A DNA stretch of 64,000 bases. It comes from a bacterium (GTDB lineage Bacteria; Zhuqueibacterota; QNDG01; JAFGCO01). This document shows, piece after piece, positions 3,988 through 24,352 of this stretch. The first letter of the stretch is position 1. Each line of letters opens with the position of its first letter. Made by a program: the position numbers and the translations under genes. The DNA lies in the NCBI GenBank assembly GCA_016932575.1, contig JAFGCO010000065.1, positions 20,465-84,464 on the forward strand. The letters are read 5' to 3'. Under the pieces are notes generated by a model. That model had not been told where the DNA came from. It saw only the letters and a list, made by a program, of their open reading frames with translations, and did no database searches.

Positions 3988-5136
3988 TTAAAATTCATAT
4001 CGGAATAAAATCGCCACATCCATTCCTTCGATATTTAATTTTTTTAAATCCTCGGCACTGATTCTTTGACCAACCATATATTTTATATAAAATTCAATGA
4101 ATGTGTTATATGAAAATCGGTATTCTCCCCCAAATCCTCCTCCCAGTGCTTTGGCCCATGATAATCCTGCTTCGTTTTCACCGTAAAAACGTCCGTCAAC
4201 TAAAACATTTGCACCGCCGCCCTGTATGTGAAAAGCCTTCCATATAATATTGAAATCCAGCTTCGGTGAGTTGCTGTTAAAAACTTCTTCCTTGAATAAC
4301 TGGCCCTGAAGCGCATAATTATTCGTTTTAGAACGATAATTTAAAAGTGCCCAGAGATAATATTCATCATAGCGATAAAAATAACCCAGATTGATTGTCA
4401 TTTTTGTCCCTGACTGAAATACATATTGAGGACTGTTGTATTTGTCTTTTTGGTAAAATGTAAAAATACCATCCAGCATGACCTTCATATCTTCATTAAA
4501 ACCCAGGTCGAGGCCAAGATGCACATTGGTTTCATCTCCCGGATCATAATAGCCATCGACTTTATTTCCCTGATTGGCCCAATTTGCGCTGTAAATGGGA
4601 ACAAACTTTCTTCGATACAAATAAGAGGCGCCGCCGCCAATGACGACATTATCTGAAAAGGAATGCGCAATAAGGGCACCGATTTTACCCTGAAATCCCT
4701 GACCATAGACAGGGGTTTTAAAATTGAATATGTTGAGATTTAAATGGGTTGATAAATAATATTCCTTATAATTCAGTCTTGTCTTACCCAGCGGAACACC
4801 AATCCCTCCTATGATAAGCAGCCGATTATCCCATAAAAGCAGATTTCCCTGCAGGTAGGGATCGGAAAATCCACCCATACTGGTATGACGCATATCCCAA
4901 TCTGTACGTGCATATGCATAATCAAAATTTAAATTAAAATGACTGTTAACCGGAATGACCATATGCACAGGAATGGTCACCTGCATAATGGGTTTTTCAA
5001 TGATAATTTCTTCCCGCCATATTTGCAGACAGGGGCCTGTTTTAATAAATCCCTTGGGAGCGCTTGGAATAATTTCTTCCTGCGCTAAGACATTTTGAAA
5101 CATGAACAGTATGATTAAGATGCAAATGCGTTTCAT
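3988..5136 (-). CDS. Outer-membrane beta-barrel protein, paralog A (cassette partner of giant protein A).
   Basis: Start refined to MKRICILIILFMF (AAGGAAA ribosome-binding site 7 nt upstream). The signal peptide ends ...NVLAQEE. Alternating amphipathic strands run throughout and the C-terminus is '...FRYEF' (terminal aromatic). It shares motifs with 14179..15279: 'DGRFYGENE', 'YDPGDE(T/F)NV', 'G(V/L)P(L/T)GKT.L', 'P.YGQG'. Confidence 0.55.
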   Translation of the reverse strand: MKRICILIILFMFQNVLAQEEIIPSAPKGFIKTGPCLQIWREEIIIEKPIMQVTIPVHMVIPVNSHFNLNFDYAYARTDWDMRHTSMGGFSDPYLQGNLLLWDNRLLIIGGIGVPLGKTRLNYKEYYLSTHLNLNIFNFKTPVYGQGFQGKIGALIAHSFSDNVVIGGGASYLYRRKFVPIYSANWANQGNKVDGYYDPGDETNVHLGLDLGFNEDMKVMLDGIFTFYQKDKYNSPQYVFQSGTKMTINLGYFYRYDEYYLWALLNYRSKTNNYALQGQLFKEEVFNSNSPKLDFNIIWKAFHIQGGGANVLVDGRFYGENEAGLSWAKALGGGFGGEYRFSYNTFIEFYIKYMVGQRISAEDLKKLNIEGMDVAILFRYEF

Positions 5137-5179
5137 CTCAATTTTCCTTGTCTTATAAACGATGGTCATCGTTAAAATG

Positions 5180-8100
5180 CTATTTTAAAAGAATCATCTT
5201 TCGTGTCGCTACTTTTCCTGCGGCTTTCAACTTATATATATAAACTCCAGAAGCCAGCTTCATGCCCTGGTCATTCGTTCCATCCCATATCACCTCGTGG
5301 TGACCGGTTCCACAATCGTTTTGAGCGATCTTTTTCACCTGCTGCCCCAATGCATTGAAAATGATGATTTCCACGTCTGATTTTCGAGGCAGACTGTAAT
5401 AAATCTTAGTCGCGGGATTAAATGGATTGGGCGAATTGGGATAAAGCTTAAATACGGCCGGTTCCAGTGAAATGCCATCACGATGCTGCTGAACAAAGGC
5501 TTCATTTCCGGCAATAATTTTAAAGGAACGCCTGGTGCTTTTCTTTTTGGTATTAATTGTGTAAATCTTTTTCATCTGGAGATCCGCAGCCACTTCATTT
5601 TCGGGATCAATTAAATAAGCCTGCCAGTTGTCCGGCATGGCCTGGATGAATTGCCAGGAAATCTGATACTTATGATTTTTTGACGGACAGTCCACATCAA
5701 TATTCCAGACATGCCCCTCTGAATTGCTTTTACGAATATCAGCCATATATTTTCCCGGCTGATATTCCCATTCTGAATGATCAAAATAAAGCGATGTGCA
5801 TTCAAAAAAGGAAGGCGGTGGTTCCGGTCGATCATAAGGATCGTACATGATATGGGCTTTCGGCCGCATTCCGGCATAATTATAGACATCGCGGCCGTAG
5901 TCATCAGATGCAGAAAATTGAATGAGCCAGGCATTTTCTTCCAGATTTTCCAATAACCGGTATTCAGAAACCTTCGATTTGCTCAGGGAGGATTCACGAG
6001 GCTGAATGTAGAGATATTCAGATTCATCCCCGGAATGATATACCCAGTATCCTACCCATGGCTCCAGAACCTGAATATCAGGTTCATAACCGTCTTGTCC
6101 CCATTCATAAGGCGGTGTAATAGTGCTGGAAGAGACAGCACAATCCGACCATTTTACATTAAAATTATAGGGATTGCCGATCATATTCCAACCTGGTGCC
6201 AGCTCTTTTTCAAAACTGTTTGCTGTAGAAACAGTCTTGCCGGGGCGGAGCTGGAAGTTCCGTTCAATATTACTGACAAGCCAGTATGCCCGTCCGGGAG
6301 GCAATGAGAAAAATACCGCATTGTCGTCAATAATCTGATTACCTTCGCCTCTTTTGGCATATTCAATATAATCATCATGAAAAGGATCCAAAGCATACAG
6401 GGGGCTTTTTGTGGGATCCCACCAGAATAGGCGCCATTGAAACGGATCATACTCAGAAATAGACACATCCACAAATACAGTATCCGGATCGTAGGTATCC
6501 AGTGAAAACGGAACAGAAAACATAGCAGCAAGCTGATATTTTCCCAGTTCATTTCTCTGTGCCGCGTAATGCATTTGCGTGATCATAGTCTCAAATCGGA
6601 TCTGCATAGAAAGCGGATTGTGCACTGCATCCACAACCGGATATGTATATGTCCGTTGCGTTTGCGATACCATATGGATATAGTATTCGAGGCCGCGTAA
6701 TGTCACACTGTCCGCAGGAATATTGGCCTTAAAAACAATATCACTTTCAGGAAAAGCAGATATCGAATGGTATTCTTCCATACCCGCCTGCCTGTAAAAT
6801 ATCTTTACTGATGACGGATTGACTTCATAAGGCACTTCGATGGCTATAGTGACCGGATCTCCCGCTTTTGGATGGGCTGGTGTCGGAGTGAGTATTTTTA
6901 TCCCTGCATCATGAGGCATATTAAAACTCCAGACTTCACGATCAATGTTTGAAAATCGGAATTCATCCAGATATCCCTGAAAATATCCGGAATAGCCTCC
7001 GGTTTTTCTCTCTGCTGCGCCAAGGAGCAGCGGCCGGACTGCATCTGCTTTTGGCTGGCCAATATCCCACTGTTTATTCCAAATTTCGATCCAATCAATA
7101 TACATGCTTCCGGAACGGGTATGTGAATCATATACAAAAGCCATATGGTGCCAGGCATTATCATTGACACGGGGGCCTGCGCCATCGAAGCCATTGACAA
7201 TTAAATGCCCGGTACTTCCAATCTTTATAACGAAATCACCCTGCATCAAAGAATCCTGATATCCCTTGCCTATTAAAACCTGTGAAACCGTATCGGTCCT
7301 GAAATAGCACTCTAAAGTAATACTTTCCCTGCTCAAATCATTCTGAAAAATATCCTTCCCGGGAATTTCAATGCGATCATTGTATCCGTCAAACCGGACA
7401 CCGGCTGTATAAAATCCCTTATTGGGTTCGATCCGTGCGCCATTCCACAGAAACCCCTGAAATTTATTATCTGAGTAATCAAGCACTGTATCACCTCGAG
7501 ATTCATTAAAATGATAAAGCGCCAATGTATACCGATCGGATGTATATTCTGCTGCACCCGGATTCTTGTAACCATATCCTTCTAAAGACAGGTTCACAGT
7601 GGGTGAATTCTCTGCATTACTGTGCAATGTAAACTGATATTGGTAATTAATCGCTTCAAGTACCGGTTTAAATGAAATTGGCAGATACATGGAATCAAGA
7701 CGATCCACTGAGAATGACTTTAAACTGTCCGGTATGCTGAAAATAGTATCCGCTCCTGTAACATGATGTATTTTCAGCGACTGATCCCCAAGATTCTTGA
7801 TCAGTACATCCAGGGTGCGTGTAAAGCCCAATTTCACCCCTTCATAATACAACTGATAGGAGGATACGTTAATTTGAGGCGGAACCACATTCAGATCCCA
7901 CGATTCCCGATTGATATTGGAAAAACGGATTTCATCCACGTACCCATAGAATTGCCGCGCATTGTCATAATCCGCTCCGAAATGGATTGTCCCGTCTCCA
8001 AGATCCAATAATTCACCCAAAAAAGCCAGGCTGTCTTGTACAATGCCGTTGATCATAAACCGCACCCAGTTGGCATCAAGAGAAACAGACACGTGATACC

Positions 8101-11100
8101 ATTGATTGACATCGATCTCATCCAAAGCATACCCGTGCAGGCTGAAACCATCGTTTTGCTGATTCCAGATTCGAGCCATAATTTCAGGGCTTTCACCGCT
8201 GGTAAAAAGAATTTCATACTGTTTCACGCCATCGGTTTCCTGCTGTACAAGAATGCCCCCATTGTCAGGTTTCACTGAAAGATTAAACCAGGTTTCAACA
8301 GTAAAATAAGAACCGACCTTTCCCGTAACTGCGGTTCCGGGAATCTCAAGAGAACCTCCGTAAAATCGAAGTCCCTTCCCAAATCGGCCGGTATCCGACA
8401 GTGCAACATTGCCAACCAGCTTGCCATGAATGCCATTTCCCGACGAATCCGCCAGAGTCTCCCCGTCCTCTCCAATTTCATCCAGATGGAAAAGTGCGAG
8501 AGTAAACTCATCTGAAGAATACGCATCCTGGCTGATCTCCGGAATGCCTTCGCCATATAGATTGACATTCCTTTGCGGCCAAAAAGGATCGTTTGTAAAA
8601 AATGTGATTTTCCCTGAGTGTTCACCCAGATCATGAGCCGTATATGTAATCCGCATCCTCCGGCTCTCTCCGGGAGCCAGTTGAAATCCGGACAGGTCCG
8701 TTTTAAAATAGTCATCCAGATCGATCGCCACCGTATCAACCACCAGTGTATCGATACCCAGATCATTGTTCACAGTTAATTCGAGAACCCGGCTCGATCC
8801 CAGATATACTTCCCCAAAATTTAATTTGGAGGAGGATACGGTGATCCTTGCCATATCCACATTAAATTCCCAGGTTTGCCTGCCAATGCCGGAAATTCGG
8901 ACTTCGTCAATATTGCCATAAAATGCATTGTTGGTTATCCAGCTCCCTCCAACCAGCAATGAAAGCGTATCCATAATGGCATGGGTTTGTTCATTCGCAA
9001 TGGTACCGACGAATCCGGCTTGATCAATTTGGTTTCCGTTGATATAAAGAAACAGGCTGTCCACACGCTGAACCAGTGCCACATGATACCATTGATTGAT
9101 TTGAATCGGACCCAAGTCTGCGCTATTCACTTCAAAAAAATCCTGGGATCCATTGTATATTCGTCCAATCAGTCTTCCACCATTGTCTATATACAGATCA
9201 AACTGATTGGCTGACGCACTTCCCCGGCGCATTAAAACACTCTGCGTAAATGGAAATTGATCCATCCTGAACCAGCTTTCAACAGTAAATCCGCCCCACT
9301 TTGATTCTAATACATCATCCGTCTCCGGACGAACAACCATCCGTTCATCATCCGCTTTAAATTTAAGAGAGTACCCTTCTCCAAATTTCTTCTGATCACC
9401 GTCATAACTCACCCCTCCCTGAAACGCACCGTCCATTCCCTGACCGGAACTATCGGAAGCTCCAGAAAGTAAATAGTCGTCGAAATGATATAATCCCAAC
9501 GTAAAATGATCTGTCTCATACCGGCCTGCTTTAAAACTGCTGACAGCTCTTCCTTTAATCGGTACGTTAAATGTAGGATAGGTCGGATCTGAATTGACAA
9601 TGGTAATGATATGTGAATCTGCATGATCCGATTCCTGCTGTGGTGAATAAGTAATCCAAAAAGTAGTAGACGTATTGGGAGATAAGGATATGGGGTAACT
9701 GGCATCAATATTCACTGAACTGTAATTGGAATATATATTTTGCACAGTAAGCAACTGTGAGCCACGGTTTCGGATAGTGACAGGTACTGTGCGGCTCTTC
9801 CCAAACAATACATTACCAAATTCGATTGTCGAAGGCTGGAGTGATATTCTCGCACGGTTTACATGAAATTCCCACGGCTGCCGGTCAATGATTGAAAGAC
9901 GAATTTCATCAATCAGGCCGTTAAATGGCAAATATCCTGTCGAAGTTGCACCGATGGCCATGGGTTCTGAGTTTTGCAAACGCAATTGCCCGGATACATA
10001 TGTCGCTGATACTTTATCACCATTTAAATACAGACGCAGACTGTCTGTGTCCCAGGTCAAAGCCGCATGATACCATTGACCGACATTCAGGATGGACATC
10101 GAACCGGACGTCACTTGATGTACTGTGCCATTTTCATCCCAGACACTTCCTATCAATCCTTTTTCGTTTTGATTGTCCAATGCCAGTTCGACCTGGCGGC
10201 TGGTGTCATTGCCGCGGCGCAGCAGGATGGCATATGTCTCAGGTTTTTGTGCGATATTAAACCAGGCTTCAATCGTGAAAGGAGTATCATAAAAATTCAG
10301 CGCACTGTGATACGGAATGTATATATAATCCGATTCCCCATCCAGATCAAGCGCTTTATTCAATCCGGTACGTGAATCCGCCTGATCAGGAGCTCCTTCG
10401 ACAAGGGCATCTTTTTCATAAAGCGATGCATCCTCAACCGATGTAGACACATCACCGTCATCCATATGATAAAGACCGACTGTAAATTCATCCCGCTCAT
10501 AAGGTCCCTCACTCACCGGCATGGAAATGCGTCCCTGCAATGTTATCTCAACCGTTGATTCATCGGGATCATTTGTGTATATATACGCCTTATCCACCTG
10601 GGTCGGATCAGCAATATCGGCTGTTGGAGAAAAACGAACCACAATCTGATGTGTATCTTCGCGGGCAACAGAAAAGGCGGTTTGACTAAAGGAAAACAGC
10701 GGGTTCAGCCACTGGATATTCTCAATCCGAAGCTGAGTGCTCCCCTGATTAATAAATCTTAATATTCTCGGTCTGGATTCTCCCGGCGGAACCGGTCCGA
10801 ACTCCAAAGGGCTGGAAGGAGTAATTGAAATATCCGGCTGAACGGCACTGCTGAATACATAGAGCCCGTCATTTCCGTCCGCCATGACAACATACCCCTT
10901 ATAAGGAGTAATGTCAAGAGCCAGAGGCGTCTCCTGGGTTTCATAATAACCTGTCTTTAAAAACACACCCGGCGTCGAAAAATCATATACAAGCAAGCCA
11001 AATTCTGCATCTGTAAGATAAATTGTTTTCTCTTTAACATAAATATCTGTGATCATACCGCCGGTAGCCACCCGGTTGACACTGTTGGTTTGTATATTCC

Positions 11101-12745
11101 ATATAAGAAATCCGTATCTGCCATTAGCAACAAACACTGTATCGCCGACAATATCCAGGCTGAAGGCTTCGATGTTATCCGTTAATGAATTGATCTGAAC
11201 AGGGGGGCCCGGCAGATCGATAATATTATACACATACACACCGCTGGAATCTGCCAAAAAGGCTCGATTGTCATGAACGATAATTTTCCTGGCAGATCCC
11301 GGTGTATTAATTTCATGCTTTTTTGTAAAATTAAAACCACTGTGCTCAATGACCATCATTCCAAGACCGCCGTAGGCCAGGAGTGCATAACTGCTGCCGT
11401 CTTCATTATAAATGGCCGCATCGTAACATGTATCGGTTTCGGAATTCCAGTATTGACCATACGATTCTGGAGAAGCAGGATTATCCATATACACAACATG
11501 CAGACCTTTCGATCCGTCCGCCAGGAATGCGAAACCGTCCTGAACCTGAACGCTTCTGACTTCACCGGGTGTATTGTATTCACTCAACAGTTCCAAATGA
11601 TCGAGAGTCTCTTCGTCATAATTCAGGTCAAATATTTTAAGTCCGGCATGCCCTGCTGCCACGTAAGCATAATGCTCATCCGTATCAACGTCATAAGCCA
11701 GATCAGAACTGGGCAGGATGCTCTCTATACTGATTTGGGAACCTTCCTGGACATCAGCCAGAACCAATCCGTTAGGACCGTCACATACATAAGCCGTATC
11801 TCCTTCCACCCAAATACGGTTCGAGATACCGTCAGTATCCAGGGGCGGAAATGGCAGAATTTGATTTTCAACAGTGACGGGATTCGAAACATCAATCGGT
11901 CCCCACACTCCATCATGTCCGCATACAATATATATATCACTTCCGGAATGACGCATATCAATCACATTCAGGGGTTGCGAATAATACCATCGGCCTTCTT
12001 CTTTTAAGTCCGAAGGATCCTGAATATCAATGATTCTTAATCCTCCCCACCCTGTTGCCGCATAGGCCATGCCGCCGATTGCAATCACATTCTGTGCCTT
12101 TGGTTCTGGCAATTGATAGCCGCTGAAAACAGAAGCAAAATCCAGTGAATCGAGCAAAACCGGGGTTTCTTTGACTTTTGTGCTAATCATAAACAGGCCG
12201 GATATGTCGGCAGCGACCAGTGCGAGCGTATCACGGACCACCCAGACATCACGGGCAGGCCTGCTGGTCGCATATCTTCCCTGAATATAAGGATCATATA
12301 TATTATTGACATTGATAATCAACATTCCCTGGGAGCCCGCAGCCACATATGCATGTTTGTAATTTTGACTCACGCCGGAAGCATATCCCCAGGTTCCAAT
12401 TTCACGAATACGGGTCAGCGTCTTGTTTATTGTATCCATCTGTACGATCTGAAGACCGGCATGACCGCAGGCTACATAAATATCCTGTAAATTGGAAACC
12501 ACCCAAATATCCTGTACAGCAGCTGGTAAAAGCAATTCCTTATAAAACTTCATTTCATGATTATCATGTTTATCCAGATATACCTGCAGATAGGCACCGT
12601 TGCCAACAAATGTAAAATCACCGCGCCGGAAAATGGCCTCACACCGGCCTTCAGCCCATCGGGCTTCACGTTCCACATTATCTTGACCCAATGCCCATTG
12701 AACACACAATGACAGGCTTATAAGTACGAAGATTTTTTTAAGCAT
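5180..12745 (-). CDS. Giant secreted surface protein A (~2521 aa). It has a signal peptide, an LVIVD-repeat beta-propeller, four [ASH/HYDIN-like Ig + LamG (Laminin_G_3-like)] modules, a conserved pre-CTD module and a type A T9SS C-terminal sorting domain.
   Basis: Start refined to the ATG ([21 protein letters not shown]) with GAGGAG 10 nt upstream; the track start is a TTG. LVIVD-like repeats: '[14 protein letters not shown]', '[16 protein letters not shown]', '[15 protein letters not shown]'. Ig-like modules: 'LEFGPV..', '[23 protein letters not shown]', '[18 protein letters not shown]', '[14 protein letters not shown]'. LamG modules: 'QWYHAALTW...LYLNG', 'QWYHVALVQ...LYING', 'QWYHVSVSL...FMING', 'AWHHMAFVY' plus 'IDE(V/I)R(L/I/F)S' motifs. 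CTD: '...[38 protein letters not shown]...[23 protein letters not shown]' (Por_Secre_tail/TIGR04183-like). Confidence 0.8.
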   Translation of the reverse strand: [2521 protein letters not shown]

Positions 12746-12790
12746 AGGTTGTGTTCTCCTCAAAATTCAAAACCATTATCCCGCCTATAA

Positions 12791-14164
12791 TCATTGTTCC
12801 GGTGGGCTCGGGGGTTCGGATAACATGTAAGGAATGATGGGAGCAGATGAAAAACTGGCTTCAACAAAAGGATTCCGAGAGTTCTGGCCGGGTAGTATCT
12901 GATTATTTTGCTGAACGCCCAACCATTGCAAACGGTTGTACGGGCTGACCAGGTCTGGTGGAGGCATAAAAACCAGTCGCGCTCTTCCCTTGGCTGTCGT
13001 TTCAACCATATGACGCACCTCGTAACTGACACGCATCTGATTATAATTGTGTGTGACTTCCCAAATATCCGGATTCACCATATAATCCCGTGCAGCAACA
13101 AAATCACCGTCATATTTTATTGCCCGATGAAAATAATTCTGGGCCAGTCTAAAACTGCTTTGATCCATCGCATCAAGGCCCTGGCAGTAGCTTAGAAACG
13201 CCGCTATATCCTCAGTGGGTATCTCTAAAAGTTCATTCCGCTCCTGATCTGTAATAAATATTCCAAAAAAATCAGAAATTCGCAGAGCCAATTCTTTCTC
13301 AATCTTGAAAAATCTCGCAATATTACCATCAAAATTCATGGTGGAGGCGATTGTATTGTTATCAGCCGCAACAATTTCAGCATCCAGTGTCATCTTTAAA
13401 TTATCTGTGATCAGGTATGATCCCCGAATGAGATACCGAACACCTAAGAGACGTGCAACTCTCTGCTGAACCTCCGGTTCACGAACGCTCATCGGATCAA
13501 GTCCCAACTCAGTCATCAAACTGTTGAGCAATGATCGATCAACCACAGTCAGATTCGATATGCATGAAAGATCCCGGACCAACAGATCAGCCAGACCTTT
13601 TTGCAATGGCGCCCACTCCGGATCATCACTCAGATTCAGAAAATAAGTTACAGCAACGCTGCTCTCAGGAAATTCATCAAATCGCCTGATATCTTCGCTT
13701 TCCATTGCTTTCTGCAATTCCCGGCGCACATGAACCTGTTTGATCCAATCGAGGCGTCCAAACATAAAGTAACGATAAGGATCATTTTCATTCAATGACG
13801 GGTAACTTTTATACGTGGCGATGGCAAGATCTTCCTGTCCCAAGGCCTCCTGACACATGGCTAGAAAAAATGCGGCTTTTCCATGTGCTGGATCCTTTTC
13901 CAAAACAGTTTTAAAAATCTTTGCAGCCGAGTTGTAACTCTGCTTATGCCAGTAGGCCACTCCAATACCGGTCACTGCCTCCCGATCGTACATGATAAAC
14001 CGTTTTCCGTCACGAATACGAGGCTGCAGCATTTTCAGATAATTCCGAATGGCCTGGTCATATTCTTTCTGGTCCAGAGCCTCTTCTGCTGCCTGGTATC
14101 TTGAAGTGGCGCATCCTGCCCATAAAAGGCAGAATATCAGGATGCTTGCAAGTTTCCATTTCAT
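12791..14164 (-). CDS. Lipoprotein A: an N-terminal TPR region plus a CsgG/LpoB/TolB-N-like 'AVxxFxN' domain, with a Pro-rich C-terminus.
   Basis: Lipobox 'LLWAGC|ATS'. TPR-like 'QKEYDQAIRNY...'. Motif 'SVAVTYFLNLSDDPEWAPLQKGLADLLVRDLSCISNLTVVDRSLLNSLMTELGL'. C-terminus '...SEPPSPPEQ'. It is paralogous to 22076..23518. Confidence 0.65.
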   Translation of the reverse strand: MKWKLASILIFCLLWAGCATSRYQAAEEALDQKEYDQAIRNYLKMLQPRIRDGKRFIMYDREAVTGIGVAYWHKQSYNSAAKIFKTVLEKDPAHGKAAFFLAMCQEALGQEDLAIATYKSYPSLNENDPYRYFMFGRLDWIKQVHVRRELQKAMESEDIRRFDEFPESSVAVTYFLNLSDDPEWAPLQKGLADLLVRDLSCISNLTVVDRSLLNSLMTELGLDPMSVREPEVQQRVARLLGVRYLIRGSYLITDNLKMTLDAEIVAADNNTIASTMNFDGNIARFFKIEKELALRISDFFGIFITDQERNELLEIPTEDIAAFLSYCQGLDAMDQSSFRLAQNYFHRAIKYDGDFVAARDYMVNPDIWEVTHNYNQMRVSYEVRHMVETTAKGRARLVFMPPPDLVSPYNRLQWLGVQQNNQILPGQNSRNPFVEASFSSAPIIPYMLSEPPSPPEQ

Positions 14165-14178
14165 AAAAACCTCTGCAT

Positions 14179-15279
14179 TTAGATTCTAAACTTCAAACTT
14201 GCCAAAATATCGATTCCTTCCACATCAATTTCCTTAAATGCCTTGATGCTGCCCATCAAATATTTCACATTGATTTTTCCTGTAACCGTCGGGCTGAATT
14301 GCTGCTGAGCTCCCATGCCAAAGCCGTAAATTGAAGCACTTCCGAACCCGTCTTCATTTTCGCCATAAAACCGGCCGTCCCACAACACTGAAAGCCCACC
14401 CCTGGGCCATTGTTTAAACTGCCATAATCCATCGGTCTCAAATTGGTCGCCGATCGTTTTTTTCGAAATTTTGGTCTGATTGGGAACAAACAGATCGTTT
14501 TTTCCCCTTTGGCGGAATCGCAGGGCGCCATAAATAAATCCGGATGTCATTTTGTAGGCAATTGATGTATTTATCAGAATTTTGTCTCCTGCATCTATAA
14601 AATCCTCACCCCCCAATTGATCGGCACTGTATATGGAGTAAACAATATCAGTGCTCCATTTTCCCTGTTTTCCGAGAGGCACACTGATTCCGGCAACCAC
14701 ATTGAATTCATCTCCGGGATCATACTCCTGATCAATATATTTCACCCATTGATAAGGGGACTTGATCATATAATTGAGCCCCAATCCGATTATCGAGCCT
14801 CCCTCCATGGGAAACGCCATTCCCCCGCCAGCTTTAAAGATCAATCCCTGACCATAGGAAGGCAGTCGGAATTTAAGAGCATTCTCACTCAATCCCTGCA
14901 CCAAACCGAATTCTTCAGCACTCAGTTCTGTTTTACCTGTGGGCAGGCCGATCCCGATATTGAACATAAAGCGTTCGTTTGCTGCAACATAGGTCGTTCG
15001 AATCCAGGTGTCTGACAGTCCGGAAATTGTGCTGTCTTTGTATGAAGCGGTTGCCGGTGAATTTGAAATGTTTAAATACCAGTTGGGCGAAATCGGATAA
15101 AAGCAGACAATCGGTGCGACTGTCTGACGCAGCGGATCATCCATATATTCATTTGTCCACTGTTGATAAGACAAACCGGTCGAGACAAATCCGCCGCTCT
15201 TCGGAGGAATCAACCCTTCTATTCCCAGAAGATAAGCCGGAATCAATATTAATAAAAATCCTTCTTTAAATTTATTCAT
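14179..15279 (-). CDS. Outer-membrane beta-barrel protein, paralog B (cassette partner of giant protein B).
   Basis: Start refined to MNKFKEGFLLILIPAYLLG (AAAGGA ribosome-binding site 7 nt upstream). C-terminus '...LASLKFRI'. It shares 'DGRFYGENEDG', 'YDPGDEFNV', 'GLPTGKTEL', 'PSYGQG' with 3988..5136. Confidence 0.55.
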   Translation of the reverse strand: MNKFKEGFLLILIPAYLLGIEGLIPPKSGGFVSTGLSYQQWTNEYMDDPLRQTVAPIVCFYPISPNWYLNISNSPATASYKDSTISGLSDTWIRTTYVAANERFMFNIGIGLPTGKTELSAEEFGLVQGLSENALKFRLPSYGQGLIFKAGGGMAFPMEGGSIIGLGLNYMIKSPYQWVKYIDQEYDPGDEFNVVAGISVPLGKQGKWSTDIVYSIYSADQLGGEDFIDAGDKILINTSIAYKMTSGFIYGALRFRQRGKNDLFVPNQTKISKKTIGDQFETDGLWQFKQWPRGGLSVLWDGRFYGENEDGFGSASIYGFGMGAQQQFSPTVTGKINVKYLMGSIKAFKEIDVEGIDILASLKFRI

Positions 15280-15308
15280 AATGAGTCCTTTACAGTATGA
15301 ACCAATCA

Positions 15309-15584
15309 TTACCCATATTTTTCTGGATAAAGAAGGGAATCAGTCAATATAAATATAGGTAAAATAGCAAATGACAAAACAACAATTCCAAATAAAGACC
15401 AAATTCTAAAATCCAATGCACAAAAGCCATTCATGAAATCGATGATAACGCTTGAAAACAAAACAAGAAGCCAAATATGAATGATCGGGCAATCTGATAT
15501 CACCAAAACGCAAATAAAATTTTGTTTGTCATTTGGATTTTTGTATTTATCTGTCATTTGGATTTTGTTTTTTTTATTTTTCAT
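15309..15584 (-). CDS. Possible small two-helix membrane protein (91 aa) between giant B and OMP B. It may equally be non-coding spacer.
   Basis: The ORF has two hydrophobic helices (HIWLLVLFSSVIIDF; LFGIVVLSFAILPIFIL). Its 5' end overlaps a 17-nt direct repeat, cassette A has no counterpart (10-bp gap there), and I see no clear ribosome-binding site. Confidence 0.2.
   Translation of the reverse strand: MKNKKNKIQMTDKYKNPNDKQNFICVLVISDCPIIHIWLLVLFSSVIIDFMNGFCALDFRIWSLFGIVVLSFAILPIFILTDSLLYPEKYG
15527..15568. repeat. Direct repeat TGTCATTTGGATTTT(T)G ×2, 26 bp apart, in an AT-rich stretch between giant B and OMP B.
   Basis: Read directly: '...tttgTTTGTCATTTGGATTTTTGtatttatcTGTCATTTGGATTTTGtttttttt...'. 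Confidence 0.5.
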
Positions 15585-15652
15585 ATAATATTGTTATTTT
15601 TCCCCGTCTGTCCAGTGATAAATTAAAGACATAGCTAAACGAGTGACAGGGA

Positions 15653-18600
15653 TCATTGAATCAGAATCATTTTTCGAATGGCTACACGACCCGGATACTC
15701 CAGCCGGTAAAAATAAACACCGCTGGAAACCCGTGTTCCGCGATCACTCACACCCGACCAGTGCAATTCATATTCACCTGAAGTCTGTTCTTCATTAACC
15801 AGTTGAGTGACCCTCTGTCCAAGCATATTAAATATGCTGAGACGGACACGCCCGCTTGCCGGCAGCGTGTATCGGATGGTGGTTTCCGGATTAAACGGAT
15901 TCGGATAATTCTGATAAAGATGAAATGCAATGGGAGCAATGACATTTTCCACCTGCTTTTCCACATATTCCGGCAAACCTGCAATACACTGAAATTTGCG
16001 GACATTCGGTGTATCCTTTCCGGTCACAATGGCATACTCATTTTTCGATATCATGTCGATAACCACGTTCTTATCTGGATCCACGAGCCGAACCTGCCAG
16101 TCTTCCGGCATGGATTGATGCAATATCCATTCGAATTCAACTAAGGATTTTTGCAGACGCGTCTCAACAACAACGTTCCAGGTGTATCCTTCATGATTGA
16201 TCTCTCGTATGTCGGCAGCATAGGTTCCGGGATGTTGTTTCCAGTCCGAATGATCAAAATACACGGAAATATAGTCTCCCATGGGCGGCGGTTCTGCACG
16301 ATCCCGAAGGTCCCATGCTTCCATTGCATCATGCCGGACGCCAAAAAAATTATCCAGGTCTTCGGCTGTTTCCGTTCTCGCTGAAAGCTGCCATACCCAG
16401 TCTGTTTTTATCATTTCATAAACAATGCTTCCCCTGACAGGTGCTTGTTTTGTCAAAGCTGCCGGTTCCCTTGGCGGAACATACAGATCCTGATAGGTCT
16501 GTGAAGCATTGTATATCCAATACCCGCCCCACGGTTCAAATACGGGCCAGTCGAGCCTGTATCCCTTGCCGTCATAATAATACAGGGTCTCAAGAGAATC
16601 AGAAGTAAGCGCACAGTCGTTCCAGTTCACCTGAAATGCAAACGGAGAACCGATCATATTCCACTGCGGCCGGATATGATACCGGCAGGGTGTTTCCGTG
16701 GATACCGAATATCCGGCACCGACATTCCAGCTTTTTTCACTTGCGGATATCAGCCAGAATGCCCTTCCCTGATCAAACGAAAAAATAAGGCTGTCCGCAT
16801 AGGAAAGGGTGTCGTCATACTCGCAATACATGGTATCTTTCCAGGTCAGGCAGCGCCATTTATACGGATCCCATGATCCAAGGTCGTCTTCCAGCACCGC
16901 TCCGGCATTGACATCATCCAGGTCTCCGGGAACGGATATCATGGTATATTTTTTTCCCGGCAGGGTTGTATCAGCCATCAGTGCGTTAAATCTTACCTGT
17001 TTGGTCAACGGTCGGTTCACAGGATCATACAGCGGGTGAGTATAGGTCTCACCGGAAACCGTCATTTCTACATAAAATTCCAATCCTCGTTCCGTTACTG
17101 ACGGTGCCGGAATCTCGACACTGTACTGGGTGCCGGTATCATCCCCTGCGACAGGTGTGGCCTGAAGGGTCTGATAAGACCGCTTTCCGCCCTGCCTGTA
17201 ATGCAGCCATACCTCCCTTCCGGCTTCACCCTCTGATGCAGGCAGGGTGATATCAACACTCTTAGGATTATTTTTTCTTGCATTTCCACTGATGGAGGCA
17301 AAAATACCTGTTCCTTTGAAAATCAAATCCCATGGCTGGCGCGCGATACTGGATATCCGGATCTCATCCATCTGCCCCTGGAAATATCCGGTTCTTTGGT
17401 TGGCTGCTGTTTCTCGAACACCGAAACACAGAGGACCGGAATTGCTGATATCTGTGTCGCCGGCTTCCCATTTACTTTGTATCTGGATTTCACCATCCAG
17501 ATACAGAGTGCCACGATGATTGGTCGTATCGTAAACAAAGGCCACATGGTGCCAGACTCCGTCCGCCACATAAGCGGTTCCCTTGCCAAAACCATGAAGA
17601 GACAACAGACCATTTGTATCGATGGACAAACCGTAATTGGCACGGTTATCTCCGCCCCGATACGGATCTTTGAAGAAAATCACCTGATTAAGTGTGTCTG
17701 TCTTAAAAAAACACTCGATGGTAAATGGTTCTGATGCCATATCGAAACGTAATCCTTCCGCATCATTCACAATGGCATAATCACTGAAGCCGTTAAATTC
17801 AAGCCCGCCGTCAAAATAGGCAGAGGCTGTCCGGCTGCCGTGCAGTGTGCCATTATATTTACCGGTGGCGTCTGCAACTGTATTGGCCGCGGCATCGCAA
17901 TGATAGAGCGCAATCGTGTAATCATCCAATGCATAAGGTGCTTTTGGACGGTAATCAATCCCGGCCGCAGTTAATACGATCTCATAAACAGGCATGTCCG
18001 GGTCATTACTGTGAATGCGAAGTGTGTCCTTTACGCTGACTGCTGTTTGGGGCACGAACCGTACTGTAACAGTAATGGTCTCATTCACCGTCAGTGTGTC
18101 GTGATCCGGACTGATTTCAAAAACGGATGTTCGGGTTGTCATACTGTTGATTATGAGCGGAAGAGCGCCAAAATTGGAAATTGCAAAGGTCCGGCTGCTG
18201 TCGCTCTCGATAAAAACGGTTCCAAAATCCAGTTGTTTGGTTGCAATTGCCAAATTTGGAATTCCGACATTCAATTCTTCAGGCTGCCGGTCGATATTTG
18301 AAAACCGGATTTCATCGAGATACCCGTTGAATCCACGGCCTGATCCATAAGCTCCGCCCATGGCCAGATCTGCCTTCGAACTGCGCAGGTTCCCGCTGAA
18401 GTCCGTTGAATCCACAATCACTCCATTCAGGTATAACCGTAATTTATATCGGTCCCAGGTCACGGCCATATGATACCATTTTTCAAGATCCATCTCAGAA
18501 TCAGGCGGGCCAAATAGTGAGAAAACCTTATTGTTGGCGGCATAAAATCGCACCACCAGTCCTTTCCCGGTGCTCAGCGTGTCATTGTACAGCACTTCGT

Positions 18601-21600
18601 ACTGTAAATCGGTTCCTGAACCGCGCCGGAAAAGCACATAGTCTTTATTCGCCGCCGGTTTTCCTGCCAGGCTGAACCAGGTTTCCATACTGAAAGGTGT
18701 GTTTGTATAATCGAACAGGGTATGATAAGGAATCCAAATCCAGCTGGTGTCTCCTGTGAAACGGAGGGCCGAAGCACCGTATTTTTTATAAAGTGTATTC
18801 CATGAAAGGCCGAGCCCTCGAAAATAACCGATCAGCCCGTTCCCGGAAGCGTCAGGAATCGAATCCATATCCACAGTCCCGTCCAGATGCCACAGACCGG
18901 ATGTATAAATATCCGGCTCATAGGCTGCCAGACTGATGGACTGAAAACCGACGCCTGAGAGCGGAATGCGGACTGTCGGTCGAAACAAATCGCTCGAGTG
19001 AAGGGTCAGCGTATCCCGAAAAGTCCGGACAGCTGACGGTGTAAATCGGACCCAGATTGTACGGCGTCCGTCAGACGTTAATTCGAATTCCGTGTCCGAA
19101 ATGTCATAGTGATTTGTTTCTGTAAACAGACTGTCGACCGTCAGGGGGCCTTCTCCGTTGTTTCTTATTGTCATATAATAATATTTGGATTTTCCCACAT
19201 AAACACTTCCGAATGCGGCACTGCTGACTGTCGTTGAAATACGTCCCGTGCTGATATTAAACTCCCACGGCTGGCGTTCCAATGCAGACAGCCGCATTTC
19301 ATCCATAACACCGTGAAAAGGATGAGCCAATCCAGCATCGTTGCCAATAGTCGCCGATATCACACCTGAAGGATACGGAACAGTCATCTGTTTCTGATCT
19401 TCAAGATTGCCGTTTAAATAAAGCTTGAGTGTACCACCCATGGTCAGTGCCGCATGATACCATTGGTCCCTGACCAATGGTGTTTCTGTATTTGACAGAA
19501 GCGTATCGATTTTCTGAACACTTTGTGATGACAGTCCCATCAGACGATTTTTATTCACGCTTAATTCATAGATAATGCGGTCCCCCTCTGCCAGCCTGAA
19601 CAGGACAGCGGTTCCTTCCGGAATGGCATTGAGCTTAAACCAGGTTTCAATGGTAAATCCCTGCCATTTGTCAAATGAAGGGAACTGACCAATGGATTCC
19701 AGATTGATATGGACAATATCGTTTTCATTAAAAATAAGCCCCTGATCAAACTTCCCGTCATCCGCTTTGGTGACCGTTGCACCGGTTACCGTACCATCCA
19801 TCAGGCCATAGTCCGATTCATCCTGCAGAGTCGCGCCATTCAGTGCATCCATATGGTACAGTGCATAGGCATAATAATCAGGAGAATAAGCGGCCAGGGG
19901 AGTGGGCTGAATTCCCGTTCCGAGAACCGGAAGTGAATGCGGACTGTTGACCGCATCGGTCTGCAATTTCAGTGTATCATAAATTGTAGTATAAGCGGCG
20001 GGTGTAAATCGAACAACAATATAAGCGGTTTCTCCCGCTGAAATCCATTGAGGCAGGTACAGAGCAGAAAACCGTCCTGTGTTGCAGGTCAATTCGCTGG
20101 CATACACCGCTGTGGAGCCGGTGTTGCGGACAATCATGGACAAAGTCCGGCTTTTCCCCAGAACAACGTTTCCGAAATCCAGTGAATCGGCATCGACCTG
20201 CAGCTCTCCGGTAAAATCCGCCTGAAGATAATAGACACCGCCTTCACCGTCGGCCACCACCACAGTATCATCAACCACATCCACTGCATAACTGGTGCCG
20301 GCTGTGTGATACGATCCGACCGCATCAAGACTTTCCGGATTCGTCAAGTCAATCAGCCGAATGGTTCCCTGCCCGTCGGCCACGACTGCGATATCGCCGT
20401 GAAAATCCACATCATAGGCGTACCCTTCCGTATCAATTTGATCCGAGGGCGTGATATTTTCGGTATTTGAGACATTTAAACCGAGAAGCCCGTTGGATCC
20501 GTCGGCCGCATAAATGATATTAGCGCCGGCTGCCGGAACGCCAATTGATTGAATTTCACTCTCATTGTCATAGGTGCCTGTAATTGTGTTTGTATTGATA
20601 TCGAGCACCTTTAAACCGTCTGTACCTGCAGCGATATAAACGCGGTTCGACCGTTCATCAGCAGTCACACCGATGGCGTCAAATCCATTGATACCCTCAA
20701 TCAGTCCTTGATCGACCGGTTCAAGACTGTTGCTTATATCCACAACACGAATACCTGAAGTGCCTTCGGCCACATAGGCATTGTCGCCAAAAATCGTGAC
20801 ATCAAGCATTTCGTTCGCAGTCTCAACCGTTGTAATCTTCGTTGCAGTAGCGGGATTAGACACATTATAAAAAATCAAACCGCCTGTACCATCGGCAACC
20901 ATCAGAACATTCCCGTCGAGAGCCAATCCCATGGCATTCTGGGTGTTCCTGTGCGCATATATCGTGATTTTTTCATCATCAAGATGCGCATGATTGAGTA
21001 TCCATAATCCGGATTCACCCCCCGCTACAAAAGTGGCCTCAGGGCTGAAAAGAACATCCATCGCCTGACCGCCGGATGTGACAGAATCAACCAGGTCAGG
21101 AGGAGCAACTGCCACATCAATTTTTTTCAAACCTGAATTTCCTTCAGCCAGATAGACATAATTTTGATCAATATACAGAGACAAGGCGTCTCCGCCTGTT
21201 TCGCGTGATGTTTTTTCCGTCATGGTGGTTAAATCGATGACCCTCAATCCGTATCCCTCATCAGAGAGATAGGCAGTTTCCGCGCTCACATCCACCGCTA
21301 TATCACTGAGGCTGACTATCTCGGGCTCTGCGATCCATTGACCGGCCACGTTGATATTTTCCGGATCAGTGATATTAACCGCCAGAACACCTTGATTTCG
21401 ATCAGCGACAAAAGCAGTGGTTCCGCGGACTGAGACACCATAAGCGGATCCTGGAGTATCCGCCGTATCGAGCGCTGCAGGACTGGAAGGACTGGATATG
21501 TCAACCGCAACCAATCCCAGGGCATCCACCGCCAGATAGGCATAATCACCCGAGACGGCCACATCCTGTACAGGAGATGAAAACTGTAAATATCCCGCAG

Positions 21601-22039
21601 GATCCAGTGTGTTTTCAATCACTTCGATGATATAGAATCCGGACTCGCCGTCCGCCACATAGATACAGCCATCTTGATAGGCAATCCGGCGGGCCGAGCC
21701 TTCCGTATAATAATGCCCGAGTTCGTAAGGTGAAGTAATGCTCGACCGGTCCAGCATATAAATACCGATGTCTTTGACTGCCACATAAATTTTAAAAGAT
21801 TGATAATAAATATCCTGAATCAATCCGGGAAATTCATATCTCGAATAACGGCCATCCGGATTGGTGGCATCCAAAATATCGAGATAGCTGCCGTTGCCCA
21901 TGTATAAAGCATCCGCAGTGGCTACGACCGATCGGCAGGGACCACTGGCCCATCGGGCGAGTAAAGATAAATTATCAACCTGCTGCGCCAGCAATGACAT
22001 TGAAAACGCTGATAATACAGCAATTATTTTCCTTTTCAT
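15653..22039 (-). CDS. Giant secreted surface protein B (~2128 aa), paralog of A. It has an LVIVD-repeat propeller, three [ASH-Ig + LamG] modules, a conserved pre-CTD module and a type A T9SS CTD.
   Basis: Start refined to ATG ([20 protein letters not shown]) with AGGGAG 5 nt upstream; the track start is a GTG. Ig-like: '[26 protein letters not shown]', '[26 protein letters not shown]', '[26 protein letters not shown]'. LamG: '[10 protein letters not shown]..LYLNG', '[10 protein letters not shown]..LYLNG', '[10 protein letters not shown]..LYLDG' plus 'MDE(M/I)R(L/I/F)S'. Shared pre-CTD motifs: '[10 protein letters not shown]', 'GYWIY', 'DHSDW'. CTD: '[36 protein letters not shown]...[23 protein letters not shown]'. 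Confidence 0.8.
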   Translation of the reverse strand: [2128 protein letters not shown]

Positions 22040-22075
22040 AATCACTCCCTATAGGAATTATGAACTCATTGTTTA

Positions 22076-23518
22076 CTATGGACGATGCGGTGGCGGAGGC
22101 GGATCCGGCAAATACCACGGATCAACCGGATAATGAGTATTCGGCGGATCCGGAGGATCTGGCAGTCCTTTTGTTAAATCGGGAAACAGATCCGCCAGTT
22201 CACCAATATTGATTTCCTCGAAAGCTTCGCGAGAATCACTGCCGGGGATAAATCCGGCATCCAGATACCACCCCATCTCCTGTAATCGATCAACAGGGCC
22301 GAGATGCACCCATGCATCATATCCCACATCTGTTGTTTGCGTCGACGGCCCGATTTTCAACAGCGTAATCATTTTCGTTTGCAGGGCCATCCAGTCTCTG
22401 TTTTGTGTTGCTTTGAAAACATCTGGTGAAGCCATGATCTGATCGGCTAATATAAATCCGGGATCCAGCTTTACCGCGCTTGCCAGGTACTTTTGAGCCG
22501 TATCATACTGATCGTGGTCAAGAGCATACAGAGCGTATGCGTAATTCAGGAAGGCCTGGAAATTGCGTGTCGAAGGCATTTTCAAACGGTTCATTTGAGA
22601 AGCTGTCAACTGAACACCCAAATCACTTAACACATTCAGAACAATTTTCTTTTGGAGCACAATAATATTCTTCAATTCTCCCTCAATATCCGATTCTTTG
22701 ATATGGCGGACACCGGTAAAGGTCAACGTACGTTGATCAATTTTCAGAATTCCGGAACCCCTCATCTCAATTTTTCCCTGAACCACAGTACCGACATTGA
22801 GCAATCTTTGCAGCTTTTCAACATGATCGATGTTCTCAAGATCTCGCGGACTCCATCCCAGGGCCTGCATTAACTGAACAGTTTTTTCTCTGGGCACCAC
22901 CTGAAAACCGCCAATGCGATTAAAATCATGAATCACCAGGCTGGCAATGCCTGCACTTATAATGGTTCCTTTTAAATCTGAGCCGGCATAATGAAAATCC
23001 AGAACAACCATGCGCTGACTTGAAAAATCCGCCTGATCATCGGGTCCGCGTGCAGCCATCTTTTTCGCCTCTTGAATGTACTGCTGCTTATTTAAAAAAT
23101 ACAAACGCCCTTTCATCGCATCCCTCGCGGGATCGCCTTCGTTCAATGCCTTATAATTCGCATAAATCGGAAGGGCCAGTTTCGATTTTCCCTGTCGTTC
23201 ATAGCACATCCCCAGATAAAAATAGGCGGCTCCGTAGGAAGGCGATTTTTGATTGACATAACGAAACACTTTGATTGCGCCATCCAGCATATTCATGTTT
23301 AAAGCGGAAATGCCAATTTTTGTCATGATCTCCGGTGAATATCGGATATATCGACTTCCATCTTGTGAACGAACTTGTAGAGAATTGATATAAGACTGCA
23401 TTGCCTTTTGATACTCTTTTTGACTAAAATAGGCATCACCCTGAGTCTGTTTAGATAGACCCGTGCATCCGAGCATCAAGGCAATTAGGCCTATACCTGC
23501 CCATCGCCAAATTATCAT
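22076..23518 (-). CDS. Lipoprotein B: TPR plus a CsgG/LpoB/TolB-N-like domain and a poly-Pro C-terminal tail.
   Basis: Lipobox 'ALMLGC|TG'. 'QKEYQKAMQSYINSLQVRSQDG' parallels 'QKEYDQAIRNYLKMLQPRIRDG' of lipoprotein A. 'RMVVLDFHYAGSDLKGTIISAGIASLVIHDFNRIGGFQVVPREKTVQLMQALG'. C-terminus 'PDPPDPPNTHYPVDPWYLPDPPPPPHRP'. Confidence 0.65.
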   Translation of the reverse strand: MIIWRWAGIGLIALMLGCTGLSKQTQGDAYFSQKEYQKAMQSYINSLQVRSQDGSRYIRYSPEIMTKIGISALNMNMLDGAIKVFRYVNQKSPSYGAAYFYLGMCYERQGKSKLALPIYANYKALNEGDPARDAMKGRLYFLNKQQYIQEAKKMAARGPDDQADFSSQRMVVLDFHYAGSDLKGTIISAGIASLVIHDFNRIGGFQVVPREKTVQLMQALGWSPRDLENIDHVEKLQRLLNVGTVVQGKIEMRGSGILKIDQRTLTFTGVRHIKESDIEGELKNIIVLQKKIVLNVLSDLGVQLTASQMNRLKMPSTRNFQAFLNYAYALYALDHDQYDTAQKYLASAVKLDPGFILADQIMASPDVFKATQNRDWMALQTKMITLLKIGPSTQTTDVGYDAWVHLGPVDRLQEMGWYLDAGFIPGSDSREAFEEINIGELADLFPDLTKGLPDPPDPPNTHYPVDPWYLPDPPPPPHRP

Positions 23519-23641
23519 AGACCCTCCTTAGCTCCACTGACTCCCCCTAAGGCATAGGTGAAGATCATGGATAGTAAACGGGAAGTAAATTTAAGGTTAC
23601 GGCACCATTTTAAAGAATCATATTTTTTGGTTGTGCCTGTC

Positions 23642-24352
23642 TCACTCCATTTGCCGCTTTTTTTCTGCAATACGCAGAATTGCATCTTTCGCTTGTTGAA
23701 ATTCAGGCTCGATTTCCAGAGCTTTTTTATATTGTGAATAGGCTTTCTGAAGCTGATTCTGATCCTCAAAACTCAGACCTTCTGAAAACAGAACCACCGC
23801 CTCAATCTTCAGGGTCTTTCCTGAATCCAACATTTTACTTTCTGACTTGGTTAACCGCACAGAAAGGTCATCCAATAATTTCTTGCTCAGCTTTTTAATC
23901 AAAGACAGAATTTGCCGGGTTTTTCCTGTAGTTTCTTCTGCCTTGACCACCGATCCGGTCTCTACTTCTACAATGCGCAGATCGATACGGATTTTATCAC
24001 CGGGCATCACCATATAACTGCCAAATACCAAATTCTTTGCACCCAGCATTTTACCAACCTGAATTGAAGTTGATTCAGAAATCAGTCCCGACTGCACCAT
24101 TTTCAATTCATCCAGCATCTCCTGCATCCGCCGGCGTTCTACCATTTTGACCGATTCGATCCGACTTAACTCGGTGATCATCATCTCTGCCAGGCCCTGA
24201 GATAACGCGGCATAAGCATCCGCGTTCATAAAAGACCTGTTTTCGAAATCGAGAACTGCCAGAGTGATCGTATCACCATAAATGGCCAAACCGGCGAACA
24301 ATAAAAAATTGACAATCAGTATGCGGAAACAGAATTTCATAATCGCTTTCAA
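23642..24352 (-). CDS. Secreted CsgG/LpoB-like domain protein with a C-terminal TPR-like helix pair. It is the first gene of the super-operon.
   Basis: Signal peptide, then 'ITLAVLDFENRSFMNADAYAALSQGLAEMMITELSRIESVKMVERRRMQEMLDEL'. C-terminus 'YSQYKKALEIEPEFQQAKDAILRIA'. Confidence 0.55.
   Translation of the reverse strand: MKAIMKFCFRILIVNFLLFAGLAIYGDTITLAVLDFENRSFMNADAYAALSQGLAEMMITELSRIESVKMVERRRMQEMLDELKMVQSGLISESTSIQVGKMLGAKNLVFGSYMVMPGDKIRIDLRIVEVETGSVVKAEETTGKTRQILSLIKKLSKKLLDDLSVRLTKSESKMLDSGKTLKIEAVVLFSEGLSFEDQNQLQKAYSQYKKALEIEPEFQQAKDAILRIAEKKRQME

Follow-up and report, generated by a model that had tools for sequence, protein, structure and literature searches.

We analysed 64,000 nucleotides (nt) of contig JAFGCO010000065.1 (GenBank assembly GCA_016932575.1; Zhuqueibacterota), called the window below, with a focus on three genes whose products combine tetratricopeptide repeats (TPRs) with a CsgG/LpoB/TolB-N-like domain. 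Two of these products, longA and longB, are predicted lipoproteins, and the third, short, is a smaller paralogue. We found that the genes belong to a conserved four-gene cassette of uncultured bacteria, which encodes two CsgG-like proteins together with a barrel of the outer membrane and a large surface protein that is secreted. This cassette appears to be undescribed: the literature searched held no description of the cassette, its cargo module, its barrel family or the terminal motif of its lipoproteins, and the Zhuqueibacterota paper mentions neither secretion nor a type IX secretion system (T9SS). We propose that the three proteins are paralogous periplasmic parts of an outer-membrane docking complex for one class of large T9SS-secreted surface proteins, a proposal to which we give an even chance of being right. 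We infer the physical association of the parts, their topology, their anchoring role and any role of the lipoprotein tail from the sequences.

The genes form one compact series on the minus strand, an operon in the order short, longB, giant B, barrel B, longA, giant A, barrel A. Inside each long-giant-barrel set the intergenic gaps are 10–30 nt, and an aldo-keto reductase gene is the next after barrel A. The features are listed below, with lengths in amino acids (aa) and with CTD standing for the C-terminal domain that serves as the T9SS sorting signal.

23642..24352, minus strand: short paralogue, first gene of the operon; 236 aa from a TTG start, 232 aa from the ATG at 24340
22076..23518, minus strand: longB, 480 aa; lipobox LMLGC, N-terminal TPR block, core, C-terminal TPR-like helices and tail
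15653..22045, minus strand: giant B (cargo B), 2130 aa
15911..17293, minus strand: pre-CTD module of cargo B, residues about 1585–2045; fits the 454-position module profile
14179..15309, minus strand: barrel B, 376 aa; the start at 15279 in the NCBI record gives 366 aa
12791..14164, minus strand: longA, 457 aa; 14 nt past the barrel B stop and 27 nt ahead of the cargo A start
14111..14113, minus strand: Cys18 codon of longA, lipobox LWAG-C
13811..14095, minus strand: N-terminal TPR block of longA, residues 24–118
13250..13687, minus strand: TolB-N/CsgG-like alpha/beta core of longA, residues 160–305
12992..13249, minus strand: C-terminal TPR-like helices of longA, residues 306–391; homologous to the C-terminus of short
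12794..12991, minus strand: C-terminal tail of longA, residues 392–457; last residues LSEPPSPPEQ
5180..12763, minus strand: giant A (cargo A), 2527 aa; domain plan of cargo B
5429..6886, minus strand: pre-CTD module of cargo A, residues 1960–2445
3988..5169, minus strand: barrel A, 393 aa; start 10 nt past the cargo A stop

A first-pass annotation, made from the DNA sequence alone, had described the three minus-strand open reading frames (ORFs) as one family, and this was borne out. LongA and longB are 27% identical end to end (E 2e-62). Short is 24% identical to residues 169–360 of longA (E 2e-15) and 23% identical to the same part of longB (E 2e-6). The three are true relatives, well beyond chance. 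The motif that was said to unite them, (L/V)AV(L/T)(D/Y)F.N, is present in longA (VAVTYFLN) and short (LAVLDFEN), but longB departs from it (MVVLDFHY).

The CsgG/LpoB/TolB-N-like fold had also been assigned correctly. In Pfam, short matches CsgG at 65.4 bits (E 5.8e-18), carries a TPR_1 match at residues 186–218, and is the only one of the three to match LpoB, marginally (24.3 bits, cut-off 22.3). LongA matches CsgG (PF03783) marginally (21.9 bits against a cut-off of 20.8), and longB by itself has no CsgG match in Pfam; the matches of short and longA span only positions 10–97 or 37–97 of the 210 in the CsgG profile. When 146-residue cores were cut from 19 family members, 15 matched CsgG (best 1.9e-11), two TolB_N, one LpoB and one FlgO. 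With 33 homologues as input, AlphaFold modelled longA at a predicted local distance difference test score (pLDDT) of 81.7. The model runs from the TPR block through a long helix and the core to more TPR-like helices, and from about residue 404 onwards the tail has low confidence. The core topology is beta-alpha-beta-alpha-alpha-beta-beta-beta-alpha, with strands 244–252, 257–266 and 271–281 connected by 4-residue loops. Against PDB sequences, the full-length family alignment found TPR proteins only, and the core-only profile found nothing significant (top match KaiB, E 0.66); the relation of the core to TolB is seen by fold comparison only. Pfam, the 19-member core alignment and fold comparison agree on this fold, and the core does not model as an unrelated one. 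The domain-level identity of these proteins is ordinary, because NCBI labels homologues 'tetratricopeptide repeat protein' and 'CsgG/HfaB family protein'.

The expected N-terminal TPR block is present in both long copies (TPR_16 at 6.5e-11 and 1.2e-9). Lipidation is predicted, as had been proposed, for the long copies only. Gly17-Cys18 of the lipobox is invariant in 20 close homologues and nearly invariant in the wider set of 33, and the lipobox lies at position 18–22 in nearly all long homologues. Nearly all members of the short family have a signal peptide without a lipobox. As judged from its sequence, short consists of a cleavable non-lipoprotein signal peptide, a core at about residues 25–165 and a C-terminal TPR-like helical pair. 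The more likely start codon of its gene is the ATG at 24340 (232 aa), the one used in the NCBI record and in homologues. It has 128 homologues of 225–240 aa; NCBI calls some of these 'CsgG/HfaB family protein', and JGI has 'TolB-like protein' for some. The C-terminal TPR-like helices claimed for short are there, but they do not set it apart, as longA and longB have them too in the region that aligns with short. Because these helices are common to both kinds, the difference between long and short lies in the added N-terminal TPR block and the tail of about 100 aa.

The two giants each have a Sec signal peptide, visible in the sequence, LVIVD repeats, several LamG_3 domains (three in cargo B) and immunoglobulin-like (Ig) domains of the ASH/HYDIN type. 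They are 32% identical. Both carry a type A T9SS sorting domain (TIGR04183, 37.7 and 45.8 bits, cut-off 23), which upholds their earlier description as T9SS cargo. None of the T9SS core genes sprA/sov, porV, gldKLMN and porU is among the Pfam-annotated genes of the 64-kb window.

Barrels A and B are also paralogues (27% identity, E 9e-48). The barrel model is a confident beta-barrel (pLDDT 84), and the protein consists of a signal peptide and the barrel alone, with no POTRA domains. Neither barrel matched a Pfam or NCBIfam family. An exhaustive HMMER search found 1,151 clusters at 50% identity (E <= 1e-10) in the barrel family. For 27 of its members, Pfam returned generic OMP_b-brl matches only, with no match to PorP_SprF (PF11751) or to Omp85/ShlB, and a profile search of the family against the PDB found nothing (top match OprC, E 1.6). 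By fold comparison the barrel is closest to the 16-stranded TpsB and PelB barrels, and not to the 14-strand PorV. Conservation in the family is highest at residues ~97–155 of barrel B (LSGLSDTWIR...GLPTGKTEL...FRLPxFGQG), which form a long loop that includes a short helix. The model places this loop between strands 5 and 6, where it resembles a plug loop or a constriction inside the barrel.

The lipoprotein genes had been tied to the cargo and to its outer-membrane protein, and the genes do travel together, in 22 genome and 75 metagenome loci. The genome loci come from a scan of one genome per species and are nearly all from unclassified 'bacterium' metagenome-assembled genomes; the metagenome loci come from a scan anchored on the barrel and hold 71 non-redundant barrel genes. 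All genome loci with enough flanking DNA show the order short-long-giant-barrel, and seven of the 22 have part or all of a second long-giant-barrel set. Orthologues of longB stand in the first cassette of six loci (L002, L029, L034, L037, L015 and L016 in our numbering). Related proteins come from organisms named Candidatus Zhuqueibacterota, candidate division KSB1, Gemmatimonadota and Bacteroidota, all in or near the FCB group. In the metagenomes, the upstream neighbour is visible for 61 of the 71 barrel genes: 52 follow a CTD protein, seven directly follow a core-bearing lipoprotein and two follow neither. The DNA upstream of the cargo is visible in 22 cases, with a lipoprotein there in 16/22 and just after the barrel in three more. 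The short gene either precedes the long gene or comes just after the barrel. The earlier statement that the family leads each cassette is thus specific to certain lineages; in others the long gene stands just after the barrel gene. The linkage of the genes is general.

Two further features of these loci bear on partnership. The whole set is duplicated in the window, and identity between the copies is now 27% for the lipoprotein, 32% for the cargo and 27% for the barrel. Such parallel divergence of three parts is as expected for specific partners. Additionally, relatives of the lipoprotein that pair directly with a barrel, with no CTD cargo (L023, L028, L056, L063, L069, L094 and L104), point to the barrel as the probable primary partner.

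The cargoes that adjoin barrels range from ~640 to 3240 aa and have in common a stretch of ~454 aa directly before the sorting domain; passenger length varies while this module stays constant. A profile of the module gave a full-length match in 66 non-redundant CTD proteins (E 1e-97 to 1e-182). For 61 of them a barrel gene comes directly next; a locus edge, a tandem cargo, a gap or an inverted arrangement accounts for the remaining five. A further 11 CTD proteins of those loci are without the module, and none of the 11 adjoins a barrel. The module has no sequence match in Pfam, NCBIfam or the PDB. The CTD proteins without it share the sorting domain only and have neither barrel nor lipoprotein as a neighbour. 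Thus, a general T9SS would do the export, and the cassette proteins would be accessories for one cargo class.

The long lipoproteins also differ according to their cargo, and they do so at their C-terminal ends. The Pro-rich ends quoted for both long copies are as described, but they had been read as poly-Pro linkers of the kind that spans the periplasm, and this does not hold: since the stretch is the extreme C-terminus, there is nothing beyond it to join. It is instead a short conserved motif, L-(G/P/S)-x-P-P-x-P-P, that makes up the last 10–12 residues of the long homologues and is kept at <30% identity (examples are LGEPPKPPQR, LPDPPRPPGR, LRRPPPPPPL and LPGPPSPPSRR). B-type proteins have two copies of it, and the longB tail carries two LPDPPxPP. 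The longA tail is largely disordered in the model (pLDDT <50 at residues 404–408 and 416–455), and 11 of its positions are invariant: S407, R411, P425, G426, R430, E435, P445, L448, P451, P452 and P454.

The PPxPP end accompanies cassettes with CTD cargo. Eight cassettes have a long-type lipoprotein and a barrel but no CTD cargo (L023, L026, L028, L056, L063, L069, L094 and L104), and in all eight a hydrophobic, strand-like end replaces PPxPP, for example VKVEFELIVPR, IEVEIRIPR or VPLPVRIRLPLKP. A crude regular-expression count of tail type against CTD cargo gave 39/3/7/11 (Fisher p 2e-5, with sequences that are not independent), and the misfits are truncated contigs or degenerate Pro motifs. 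It had been said that a family found with no linkage to T9SS cargo would speak against the proposed adaptor role. Such members exist at the edges of the family (the cargo-less relatives, L024 and L026), but the subfamily of the window keeps the linkage.

Four of the cargo-less cassettes (L056, L063, L069 and L104) have, behind the barrel gene, a gene for a lipoprotein of 287–624 aa, one of these proteins with Fib_succ_major and Ig/fn3 domains. These variants run short, long, barrel, lipoprotein (10001..14498 in L104); a first impression of a LamG domain in the 401-aa lipoprotein of L104 was not confirmed by Pfam. These cassettes suggest that one outer-membrane module can serve lipoprotein-type surface proteins too. 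The lipoprotein-barrel pair looks like an old core to which the cognate surface protein has been attached in different ways.

Based on these findings, we propose a model for the cassette. The long copies would be lipoproteins with a probable anchor in the outer membrane's inner leaflet, and short would be a soluble periplasmic version made of the core and TPR-like helices. Each long copy would partner the ~16-strand barrel of its own cassette. After export by the T9SS, barrel and lipoprotein would receive the cognate cargo and hold it at the surface, gripping it by the conserved 454-aa module ahead of the type A sorting domain. The tail would be the coupling element from the lipoprotein to the cargo or to the T9SS, and it may reach into the barrel lumen. 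We consider this last step because of the PorE-PG1035 cross-link discussed in PMC9143113 and because the lipoprotein RcsF threads through barrels (PMC4942254). RcsF and its barrels are a precedent for a disordered lipoprotein segment that passes a barrel lumen; they are not homologous to the proteins here, RcsF threads its N-terminal region, and threading in the cassette is hypothetical.

The best reading, by analogy, is that the cassette works like the PorE-PorP-cargo system with parts that are not homologous. A PorE-PorP-PG1035 complex exists, in which the TPR lipoprotein binds a barrel and the barrel keeps a CTD protein at the surface, and porP-like genes of Bacteroidota adjoin those of their cognate cargo and porE-like genes (PMC9143113). 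The two systems share a three-part plan: a TPR lipoprotein of the periplasm that is associated with the outer membrane, a beta-barrel in that membrane, and a surface protein that bears a CTD (PMC9143113, PMC12635249). In both, the gene clusters include the cognate cargo, and every cargo paralogue has its own accessory set. The binding region of the cargo is also comparable, as a long C-terminal stretch and not the sorting domain alone is implicated: in SprB the C-terminal 368 aa take part (PMC9143113), and here it would be the 454 aa and the CTD. The parts themselves differ. The lipoproteins are not PorE, as T9SS_PorE (NF052230) scores 13 bits against a cut-off of 600 in the TPR region only and there is no beta-propeller or OmpA_C here, nor are they PorW/SprE (NF052312, 19.4 bits against 250). 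The barrel, without a PF11751 match and nearer to the 16-strand TpsB/PelB, is not the 14-strand FadL-type barrel of PorP/SprF. PorP-type systems serve cargo with a type B CTD, whereas the CTD here is type A. In contrast to PorE-PorP, the set here includes a second, soluble CsgG-like protein, and the cysteines that link SprF and GldK have no conserved counterpart in the barrel or lipoprotein.

Three points weigh against the docking complex. In Porphyromonas, type A cargo is anchored via anionic lipopolysaccharide (A-LPS) and needs no dedicated barrel (PMC9143113). In one locus, L090, the lipoprotein has a PPxPP tail and the CTD proteins after the barrel lack the 454-aa module. Thus, the tail may not read the module, and the motif may relate to the T9SS route instead. 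Finally, resemblance to the lipoprotein or the barrel was what brought the loci into the set, so the linkage statistics are partly circular, and the sequences are phylogenetically related.

The resemblance of the barrel to TpsB and PelB barrels led us to consider a dedicated exporter, in which the barrel and a periplasmic TPR/CsgG-like collar are the conduit for the cargo or its C-terminal module. This could resemble two-partner secretion, with the TPR lipoprotein replacing POTRA, or PelB/PelC, and the CTD would serve only later processing or attachment. We think this explanation unlikely. Lipoproteins of the CsgG/HfaB family are export components, in curli secretion and holdfast anchoring. 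Members of that family (PF03783), lipoproteins in the service of surface fibres or anchors, have the alpha/beta fold superfamily in common with the cassette proteins. Here, however, only the N-terminal part of the profile is matched, with TPRs on either side of the domain. At 146 aa the core is too short to hold the two transmembrane hairpins, which makes a pore of the CsgG type unlikely, and no curli or holdfast genes are nearby in the window. PelC probably shares the TolB-N-like fold; papers liken it only to PqiC and LptE, so PelBC serves here as an analogy. The cassette echoes the PelBC parts list, in which TPRs go with a small lipoprotein domain of alpha/beta type and a barrel of 16 strands (PMC12141448). 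In the cassette, unlike PelB-PelC (PMC12141448), the TPRs are fused to the lipoprotein and not to the barrel, and the substrate, a protein, carries a T9SS signal. A sequence relationship to PelB-PelC was not detected, and a ring assembly of the cassette proteins is conjectural. Export through the barrel would also fit the conservation of its internal loop with a helix (GLPTGKTEL...FRLPxFGQG) above all other parts, and cargo of up to ~3240 aa, like TpsA proteins. It is harder to square with the bona fide type A sorting domain of the cargo, with the LamG and Ig passengers, which probably fold in the periplasm, and with the barrel itself, whose likeness to TpsB/Omp85 is one of barrel fold only: it lacks POTRA, and none of the 27 members has an Omp85/ShlB signature in Pfam.

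A more elaborate form of the docking complex, which we consider slightly less likely still, is an interlocked machine for surface display, so far unrecognised and spread widely among uncultured bacteria of the FCB group, in which the conserved, disordered PPxPP tail runs through the TpsB/PelB-like 16-strand barrel and grips the 454-aa module on the outside. If this unlikely arrangement is true, the giant would be held non-covalently from the periplasm, an alternative to A-LPS attachment and PorP-type anchoring.

It is also conceivable, if rather improbable, that the lipoproteins are periplasmic chaperones or holdases. Their TPRs would keep the long cargo export-competent and hand it over to the T9SS translocon, with no stable barrel complex. 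This would fit the peptide-binding type of TPR and the position of the long gene directly upstream of the cargo gene in most lineages, but in several lineages the long gene comes after the barrel and not before the cargo. It is also at odds with the conserved lipid anchoring and with the relatives that pair directly with a barrel gene where CTD cargo is absent, and it leaves the role of the barrel unexplained.

A tether to the cell wall, which the first-pass annotation had offered as one possibility, or an envelope-integrity module of the Tol-Pal or LpoB kind, whose TolB-N/LpoB-like domain and YbgF-like TPRs would touch peptidoglycan synthases or TolA-like proteins and so hold barrel and cargo to the wall, strikes us as very improbable. 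PorE does bridge PorP to peptidoglycan (PMC9143113), and in NCBIfam the proteins weakly match tol_pal_ybgF and the N-terminal part of the OmpA-like CHU_0125 family. However, the NCBIfam scores of all three proteins are far under the cut-offs, and searches of Pfam and NCBIfam found no OmpA_C, LysM, SPOR or other peptidoglycan-binding domain in them, so that the proposed tether is not supported; the Pro-rich stretch is terminal and does not act as a spacer. The core shares the fold of the N-terminal alpha/beta domain of TolB, but the Pal-binding six-bladed beta-propeller is absent from the Pfam and NCBIfam matches and from the model (TIGR02800, 13.4 bits against 343). The score against LpoB, the PBP1B activator, is low as well (TIGR02722, 14.2 bits against a cut-off of 110.55). 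Unlike TolB, LpoB and YbgF (CpoB), these proteins are encoded in a T9SS cargo cassette and not among tol-pal or PBP genes.

That general envelope TPR/CsgG-like genes merely happen to lie beside giant genes is barely credible: the TolB-N-like-plus-TPR module is indeed widespread, occurring in kinases and cyclases (P0044–P0047; TIGR04510), and L024/L025 have three such genes with neither barrel nor cargo nearby, but the linkage is kept across ~100 loci at <30% identity and in several gene orders, the whole cassette is duplicated with parts diverged in parallel, and the tail motif tracks the presence of cargo. The three genes of L024 (8748..11218), a set that includes a distant relative, encode CsgG-like proteins of 233 and 174 aa and a TPR+CsgG-like protein of 405 aa, and they lie beside an amino-acid ABC transporter.

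Outside the model Bacteroidota, little is understood of how the cell surface retains very large T9SS cargo; type A cargo presumably requires A-LPS, and type B cargo a barrel of the PorP kind. The cassette suggests a third, cargo-specific solution to surface retention. Three of its four parts, namely the barrel family, the 454-aa cargo module and the long lipoprotein subfamily with PPxPP, have no Pfam or NCBIfam model. In metagenomes of the Zhuqueibacterota/KSB1 kind, module and barrel together would allow surface-anchored proteins to be predicted, and the parts offer handles for annotation and for experiments on lipoprotein-barrel-adhesin coupling. The passenger, at ~640 to 3240 aa, would be freely exchangeable, which is of interest for surface display.

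Several neighbouring features were also observed. One further gene lies next to the operon and is divergent from it.

24662..25939, plus strand: GWxTD-domain protein, 425 aa; TIGR04514, 111.5 bits

A GWxTD gene is divergent in the same position in 11 of the 22 genome loci and in L029 and L034, and it may belong to the cassette system. Between giant B and barrel B there is an AT-rich gap of 344 nt (15310..15652), where the counterpart in cassette A measures 10 nt. A low-complexity ORF of 91 aa (15309..15584; an 82-aa product by the gene caller in L001) and one sigma-70-like match lie in it, and the gap could hold an internal promoter or a spurious ORF. A scan of 12500..25000 for sigma-70 promoters and terminators was at background level (27 sites against 25.6 expected).

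Elsewhere in the window, a 420-aa protein (58657..59919, minus strand) has a ToxR/CadC-like layout: a weak N-terminal Trans_reg_C match (23.3 bits, under the cut-off) is followed by a single transmembrane segment and by ~280 aa of C-terminal domain that lacks annotation. It was considered as a carrier of the TolB-like-plus-TPR module, and nothing in its sequence points to such a module. A 1560-aa protein (53966..58648, plus strand) has an AMP-binding enzyme domain and a C-terminal GNAT acetyltransferase domain, with ~800 unannotated residues between them. Three ORFs of 736, 466 and 397 aa, at 40046..43656 (plus strand) and 35767..36960 (minus strand), have no Pfam family, and the 397-aa ORF adjoins a FIMAH-domain protein (34213..35745).

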